Assembly: GCF_003334315.1 (NCBI RefSeq)
Contig: NZ_QOWR01000016.1
Strand: one strand, 5' to 3'
Length of the DNA: 64,000 nucleotides
DNA from: Escherichia coli
GTDB lineage: Bacteria > Pseudomonadota > Gammaproteobacteria > Enterobacterales > Enterobacteriaceae
A model generated the notes under the pieces. The model was not told the DNA's origin. It worked only from the letters and a program-made list of their open reading frames with translations, and searched no databases. Each line of letters begins with the position of its first letter. The first letter of the stretch is position 1. Of this stretch, positions 9,001 through 10,742 are shown piece by piece. The position numbers were made by a program, and so were the translations under genes.

Positions 9001-10522
9001 GGCGGAAGTAGTCGTAAATAATGCGCGGCTGACTGGAAAGCACGGCGAATGGGGTATCATCGCCCATCGAACCGACCGCTTCCTGACCGTTTTCGCCCAG
9101 TACGCGAATTACGGAGTCCAGCTCTTCCGCGCTGTAGTTAAACTGTTTCTGGTAGCTGGCAAGCGTGTCGTCGTCCAGTTCGCGGCTACCCACTTCTTCA
9201 TCGGGCAGATCTTCAAACGGTACCAGTCGGCGGACGTTTTTCTCCATCCACTCTTTATATGGATGGCGGCTTTTCAGATCGTCATCGGTTTCTGCCGAGT
9301 GCAGAATACGCCCACTGCGGGTGTCGATAACCATCAGTTCGCCTGGCCCGACGCGGCCTTTTTCGACCACTTCGTCAGGCTGGTAATCCCAGATACCGAC
9401 TTCAGAGGCGCAGGTGATGAGCTTATCTTTGGTGATGACGTAGCGCGCCGGACGCAGACCGTTACGGTCGAGGTTACAGGCGGCAAAACGACCGTCGGAC
9501 ATCACGATGCCCGCCGGGCCATCCCACGGCTCCATATGCATGGAGTTAAAGTCAAAGAAGGCACGCAGTTCCGGGTCCATATCCGGGTTGTTCTGCCAGG
9601 CGGGGGGTACTAATAGACGCATGGCGCGGATGATATCCATCCCGCCTGCCAGCAGCAGTTCCAGCATGTTATCCATGGAACTGGAGTCAGAGCCGGTTTC
9701 GTTGACGAACGGTGCGGCGTCGTGCAGATCAGGGATAAGCGGCGTCTGGAATTTATAGGTACGCGCACGCGCCCATTGGCGGTTACCGGTGATGGTGTTG
9801 ATTTCACCGTTATGCGCCAGATAGCGGAACGGTTGCGCCAGCGGCCAGCGCGGTACGGTGTTAGTGGAGAAGCGCTGGTGGAACAGGCAAATGGCCGATT
9901 CCAGACGCAGGTCCGCAAGATCCAGATAAAAGCGCGGCAGATCCGCCGGCATACACAGACCTTTATAGATGTTCACCAGATTCGACAGGCTACAGACGTA
10001 GAAGTCTTTGTCGGCTTCGAGACGCTTTTCAATGCGGCGGCGGGCGATAAACAGACGGCGCTCTATATCGCGTGGACGCCAGCCTGCCGGGGCGTTCACA
10101 AAAATTTGCTCAATGCGTGGCAGAGAGGAGAGGGCGATTTCACCCAGCACGCCTTCGTTAGTGGGGACATCACGCCAGCCCACAATCGACAAGGTTTCGC
10201 GTTGCAGCTCTTCTTCAACGATGCGGCGTGCGGCAGCGGCGAGTTCAGGATCTTTATTCAGGAATAGCATCCCGACGGCGTAGTTTTTCGCTAAACGCCA
10301 GCCGCGCTCCTGCGCAACGATGCGAAAAAAGCGATCCGGTTTTTGTAACAGCAAGCCGCAACCGTCACCGGTTTTACCATCGGCGAGAATCGCGCCACGG
10401 TGCTGCATGCGGGCCAGTGCGTGTATTGCAGTACGCACTACCTTGTGGCTAGGTTCGCCTTCTATGTGGGCGATCAGGCCGAAACCACAGTTATCCCTCT
10501 CAAGGGATTTATCGTACAACAT
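6062..10522 (-). CDS. gltB: glutamate synthase [NADPH] large (alpha) subunit
   Basis: Track ORF 6062..10630 (1522 aa, [10 protein letters not shown]...); start set to in-frame ATG 10522 ([15 protein letters not shown]...) because GGGAGG Shine-Dalgarno (plus 10531-10536) lies 8 nt upstream; in-frame ATGs at 10615 and 10630 remain possible. Confidence 0.93.
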
Positions 10523-10742
10523 ATCGTGAACCTCCCCCAGGCTCTGCGGGAACCCCACTTCCGAACCGCTGCGCACGGGCACAGAAAGAGCGTGGCGACG
10601 GGGTTTGCGTGTCATACGCGCGCCTCGCATTCGCCCCCTTGTTGTCCTTTTCGCATCGGTTAATACGGTGAAGAGGGGATCTCAATTACTGCATAAATAT
10701 GATGAGCAGGCTGCTCATCCAGAAAGCTTCCAGCGGATTTCC

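Follow-up and report, generated by a model that had tools for sequence, protein, structure and literature searches.

The window analysed here, a 64,000-nucleotide stretch of the Escherichia coli chromosome, carries gltB, the gene for the glutamate synthase large subunit, on the minus strand. A 901-base query around the gltB start is 100% identical to strain CP53 and was matched in 5417 of 5426 complete E. coli genomes. The longest mechanical ORF of gltB (6062..10630) encodes 1522 residues, and its beginning holds three in-frame ATGs, at 10630-10628, 10615-10613, and 10522-10520, as the initial annotation had observed. Read from 10630, the frame comprises a 36-residue extension followed by 15 residues that run from ATG 10522 through the CGFG region. 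The elements relevant to the choice of start are:

6062..10522, minus strand: gltB coding sequence, 1486 codons plus stop; the RefSeq coding sequence start maps here, and the product matches NF008730.
10520..10522, minus strand: ATG, very probably the true gltB start codon; an ATG in 60/60 loci matching query residue 1.
10531..10538, minus strand: Shine-Dalgarno sequence GGGGGAGG (core GGGAGG, 10531-10536), identified by its 8-nt spacer, duplex energy, and conservation.
10613..10615, minus strand: upstream in-frame ATG, very probably not a genuine start; opens a 1517-residue version and is absent from most species.
10628..10630, minus strand: upstream in-frame ATG, very probably not a genuine start; opens the 1522-residue longest ORF, in a frame that is not conserved.
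10490..10522, minus strand: putative 11-codon propeptide preceding the catalytic Cys (TGT, 10487-10489), placed by Pfam and PDB alignments.

Initiation signals rank the three candidates. ATG 10522 is preceded by GGGAGG (10536-10531) and the 8-nt spacer TTCACGAT, and it combines the strongest Shine-Dalgarno duplex with the cheapest opening. Predicted duplex energies with the anti-Shine-Dalgarno sequence are −12.5 kcal/mol for ATG 10522, −10.9 for ATG 10630, and −5.9 for ATG 10615; the corresponding opening energies, for the window from −18 to +15, are 12.7, 20.9, and 17.8 kcal/mol. It had been claimed that the third ATG alone has a strong Shine-Dalgarno sequence. Its first rank stands, but the description of the other ATGs as lacking such a sequence is a slight overstatement: the Shine-Dalgarno-like AAGGGGG, source of the −10.9 kcal/mol duplex, ends 3 nt before ATG 10630. 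Three nucleotides is too close a spacing, and the site is part of a stem. ATG 10630 itself occupies the internal loop of a stable hairpin; ATG 10615, with its weak Shine-Dalgarno sequence, falls in the apical loop, where the hairpin is variable. Around the downstream start, GGGGAGGTTCAC in the Shine-Dalgarno region is nearly invariant across 45 aligned leaders. (The E. coli element is GGGGGAGG with an 8-nt spacer; the other aligned Enterobacterales leaders have GGGGAGG at 9 nt.)

A comparative scan, taking one genome per species, yielded 80 gltB loci. In 60 loci, from the Enterobacterales, Orbaceae, and Pseudoalteromonas, the protein match extends to query residue 1, and each of them has an ATG equivalent to 10522. 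Every Enterobacterales locus conserves this ATG along with a GGGGAGG-type Shine-Dalgarno sequence and the amino-terminus MLYDxSxExDNCGFG. Immediately upstream, by comparison, the frame is frequently closed: Tatumella has a stop at −3 and Dickeya one at −6; a large group of Enterobacteriaceae has one at −24, and many other species at −18 to −45. Where the stop lies only 3-6 nt upstream (loci L046, L047, and L049), the equivalent of ATG 10522 is the sole possible start.

The 108 nt between ATG 10630 and ATG 10522 do not evolve as coding sequence. In each of the 27 species nearest E. coli, this interval contains indels whose lengths are no multiple of three; in 21 of them it also contains an in-frame stop. 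Counted by codon position, substitutions in the 108 nt number 179/167/156, whereas the first 108 codons of the coding sequence show the expected excess at third positions (192/84/877). Across species, 202 to 266 nt separate a conserved leader block from the ATG, and the differences are not in steps of three. Frame-breaking indels, stops, flat codon positions, and off-frame length changes together indicate that the extension is not under coding selection. Cross-species alignment of the upstream 36 codons, which had been proposed as a check on the start, thus reveals no coding constraint. The 36-residue extension matches no NCBIfam family.

Within E. coli, no stop interrupts the frame from 10630 in any of the six strains compared. 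These strains have three variable sites in the 108 nt, one synonymous and two non-synonymous with respect to the putative frame, which are too few to decide the matter. Two Citrobacter species also keep both upstream ATGs in frame, and a third has a stop; local frameshifts make the predicted Citrobacter upstream peptides diverge from the E. coli one, so the resemblance between the two genera appears to lie at the nucleotide level. Upstream in-frame ATGs are common by chance: shuffled 215-nt leaders contain at least one before a stop in 27% of cases, and at least two in 7%. The three-ATG pattern therefore does not exceed chance expectation.

Protein family models give a second, independent view of the amino-terminus. 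Positions 1-408 of the Pfam GATase_2 model (PF00310) align to residues 48-449 of the long ORF, and model position 1 corresponds to Cys48, which is Cys12 (the CGFG residue, 12th codon) when counted from ATG 10522. The domain thus starts with its nucleophile Cys at model position 1, as in a class-II (Ntn) glutamine amidotransferase domain. The NCBIfam equivalog model NF008730 (PRK11750) scores 2930 bits against a cut-off of 1047, with residues 1-1486 covering profile positions 4-1490 of 1490. This register with residue 1 leaves no room for 31-36 extra residues.

Structures of related synthases point the same way. Azospirillum brasilense GltB (1ea0, 2vdc, and 6s6s), Synechocystis Fd-GltS (1llw), and Bacillus subtilis GltA (7mfm) share the class-II glutaminase domain; their mature residue 1 is Cys, preceded, as here, by a short conserved LY..E.D.CG segment. 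Homology to the solved GltS chains begins at LYD, and the chains 1ea0, 2vdc, and 1llw begin at the aligned Cys. Together with the GATase_2 boundary, this agrees with the expectation that the CGFG Cys would closely follow the third ATG, separated from it by a short propeptide. This propeptide is 11 residues long in E. coli and longer in full-length A. brasilense and B. subtilis proteins, in which the alignment begins at residues 28 and 12, respectively. Removal of the propeptide from E. coli GltB is probable, by analogy to these homologues and to what is established for Ntn amidotransferases. The amino-terminus of mature E. coli GltB was reportedly sequenced by Oliver et al. in 1987, and is said to begin at Cys. 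The mature protein would start at this Cys whichever ATG were used, so classical amino-terminal sequencing cannot separate the three starts.

Reference annotation already uses ATG 10522, so this start is known. The RefSeq start of gltB in CP53 (locus position 3579) maps to 10522 of the window. In K-12 MG1655, gltB is annotated at 3354725..3359185 (b3212; NP_417679.2; glutamate synthase [NADPH] large subunit, 1486 residues), again with a start equivalent to 10522, as is true for four further divergent E. coli strains with query identity down to 94.8%. Indeed, the gene examined here shares with K-12 its start codon, its 1486-residue product, and a nearly identical leader; a single substitution distinguishes the promoter-proximal regions compared, and nothing of substance differs.

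Nevertheless, exact GltB proteins of all three lengths exist in public databases. The 1486-residue form bears RefSeq names, the 1517-residue form is present on at least 1000 contigs, and the 1522-residue form on 34. The ambiguity is therefore real in automated annotation and settled in curated annotation. The two longer entries are examples of the over-extended amino-termini that automated annotation generates through a longest-ORF rule; unlike other such cases, the error in GltB leaves the predicted mature enzyme unchanged, the amino-terminal peptide being removed.

Together, these lines of evidence (RefSeq annotation, conservation, Shine-Dalgarno sequence, and the Pfam and NCBIfam models) agree with the proposal that the most downstream ATG is the gltB start. 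We hold with high confidence that gltB begins at ATG 10522 and encodes a 1486-residue precursor with an 11-residue propeptide, and that the upstream ATGs are chance features of the leader. In the corresponding model, ribosomes would start at ATG 10522, guided by the GGGAGG element 8 nt upstream. The precursor would then lose its 11-residue propeptide, making Cys residue 1 of the class-II (Ntn) glutaminase domain. ATGs 10630 and 10615 would be accidental components of a leader, about 215 nt long and untranslated, whose conservation is that of a nucleotide sequence and an RNA structure and not of a protein.

Two other arrangements were considered. Initiation might be leaky, with ATG 10522 as the main start and a small fraction of ribosomes in E. 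coli entering at 10615 or 10630; selection would be indifferent to this because the propeptide is removed in any case, and a longer propeptide would presumably give the same mature enzyme. The open frame in all six strains and the moderate Shine-Dalgarno-like tract at 10630 are compatible with such leakage, but both upstream ATGs reside inside a stable conserved hairpin, selection to keep them leaves no sign, and no experimental signal was found, which together make dual initiation improbable. (The supplements of TRAINSPOTTER N-terminomics, of the sORF profiling by Stringer et al., and of Salmonella riboproteogenomics contain no initiation or amino-terminal data for gltB.) Least credible, and by our estimate very improbable indeed, is exclusive use of ATG 10615 or 10630 followed by cleavage of a 42- or 47-residue propeptide: the open frame, the database entries for both longer proteins (the 1517-residue form above all), the long propeptides of homologues (full-length A. 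brasilense 6s6s aligns only from residue 28), and the AAGGGGG tract before ATG 10630 can be cited in its favour, but in nearly all relatives a frameshift or stop interrupts the extension, whose codon positions show no bias, ATG 10630 stands only 3 nt from its tract and costs 20.9 kcal/mol to open, ATG 10615 has a weak Shine-Dalgarno sequence, the curated family models leave no room for the extra residues, and RefSeq uses neither ATG.

Initiation at ATG 10522 assigns the upstream sequence to the leader, whose features are:

10523..10737, minus strand: 5′ untranslated leader of about 215 nt; the 5′ end (±3 nt) is placed by promoter and Crp site geometry.
10701..10719, minus strand: hairpin H1, GATGAGCAG-C-CTGCTCATC; compensatory changes in 5/7 pairs, and 93% of cells paired across 45 species.
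10686..10700, minus strand: near-invariant motif ATATTTATGCAGTAA, directly after H1; includes a mini-ORF, ATG-CAG-stop.
10586..10640, minus strand: long irregular hairpin (AAGGGGGCGA ... TCGCC-ACG-CTCTT) that encloses both upstream ATGs.

Published work places a Crp site centred at −65.5 in the gltB control region, with IHF and Lrp sites further upstream, in fragments that extend to +246 (PMC1784095). This Crp site maps to a Crp-like dyad, TGCGCTAAAGCACA, at 10809-10796 on the minus strand. Downstream of the dyad lies a promoter, TTGACC-N17-TAAGTT (10771-10743, minus strand), that is conserved from the Enterobacterales to Photobacterium and Aeromonas (loci L067, L072, and L078) and was missed by a simple sigma-70 scan. 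From the positions of the Crp site and the promoter, we infer a transcription start near 10737 (±3 nt); the Cappable-seq start-site tables searched hold nothing on gltB. A start at this position places all three ATGs on the mRNA and gives a leader of about 215 nt. The notion that the 108 nt are untranslated leader is thereby supported, both by the lack of coding selection and by the inferred transcription start some 215 nt upstream of ATG 10522.

Conservation in this leader was evaluated with two alignments: A2, from 45 Enterobacterales species, and A3, from 35 species. The covariation score for the whole tested structure was reached by none of 500 shuffles. The proximal hairpin, H1, was flagged by a consensus scan as an intrinsic terminator and rejected as such, since its tail is not U-rich (AUAUUUAUGC in E. 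coli, AUAAAUAU in Photobacterium). A CsrA site in H1 was likewise rejected: the GGA is not conserved in Yersinia and several other genera.

In the 45-leader alignment, H1 is followed by the near-invariant AUAUUUAUGCAGU (10700-10688, minus strand) and then by GAGAUUCCCUC. Within this region TTATGCAGT is invariant in A3 and nearly so in A2, and the leaders of Photobacterium and Aeromonas also contain the ATGCAGT motif. The mini-ORF, Met-Gln-stop, lacks a Shine-Dalgarno sequence; most Enterobacterales preserve it, the stop being TAA, TAG, or TGA according to genus. Aeromonas and some Photobacterium retain the motif and have lost the short ORF. It appears more likely, judging from these sequence patterns, that the conserved entity is the motif rather than the mini-ORF.

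The long hairpin at 10586-10640 has the same architecture in 25 other species folded singly. Its apical sequence and length vary; in its outer helices, pairing is 73-83% and some changes are compensatory. By minimum free energy, the whole leader is no more stable than shuffled sequences (z = 0.35), and RNAalifold applied to the full alignment recovers only H1 and the invariant Shine-Dalgarno hairpin. Support for the middle hairpin consequently comes from column counts and species-by-species folds. Elsewhere in the leader, a hairpin of about 14 nt, CAAGUccucaaACUUG (CAAGU...ACUUG), is present in the other 44 leaders (loci L007-L059), altered in Edwardsiella and Photorhabdus, and absent from E. 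coli (at about 10660-10672).

The 5′ module of the leader is recognisable from the Enterobacterales to Photobacterium. A covariance model built from it has the gltB leader as its sole match in the window, and recovers the held-out leaders of Dickeya, Photorhabdus, Hafnia, and Rosenbergiella; Photobacterium is recovered weakly (E about 0.01). The promoter, a hairpin, and the AUGCAGU motif are visible in Photobacterium leaders as well, and one of them (locus L067) also has the GCUGGAAGC block. A search of Rfam 15 over 10450-10850 identified no family, giving two chance-level matches only (E = 3.7 and E = 8).

These features raise the tentative idea that the gltB leader of about 215 nt, including the 108 nt, might be an undescribed cis-regulatory RNA, although we consider this less probable than not. 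Its elements run in the order GCUGGAAGC; H1; AUAUUUAUGCAGU; the long hairpin with its two AUGs; and the Shine-Dalgarno sequence within an invariant GAGCC-UGGGGA-GGUUC. Such a leader could provide post-transcriptional control of glutamate synthase, for example as a candidate docking site for RyhB and Hfq in iron sparing.

We know of no mapped site for RyhB repression of E. coli gltB. The highly conserved leader block GCUGGAAGC (10734-10726, minus strand) is complementary to the RyhB core GCUUCCAGU. Pairing of GCUGGAAGC plus UGAGCA with RyhB nt 42-62 has a predicted energy of −23.1 kcal/mol, compared with −21.1 ± 2.1 for shuffled targets. In addition, gltB codons 15-17 (10472-10480, minus strand) form a perfect complement to RyhB nt 1-9. 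In a ribosome-profiling study, gltB is listed among the novel genes repressed by RyhB, its ribosome occupancy being altered and its mRNA unchanged (PMC4666370), and Vibrio cholerae RyhB is reported to target gltB1 (PMC5511505). For neither of the two predicted duplexes is the strength clearly beyond that obtained with shuffled targets, and RyhB pairing therefore stays a lead.

Little hangs on the start question itself: reference annotation already has it right, and any of the three ATGs would yield an identical mature enzyme. The practical point is that GltB entries of 1517 and 1522 residues still circulate, from pipelines that favour long ORFs. The conserved structured leader could matter more, and is the only part that may repay further work. 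Much of nitrogen assimilation passes through glutamate synthase (GOGAT), and to our knowledge nearly everything described of its regulation concerns the promoter. The deep conservation and the structure of the 5′ leader suggest a further, undescribed layer of glutamate synthase control.
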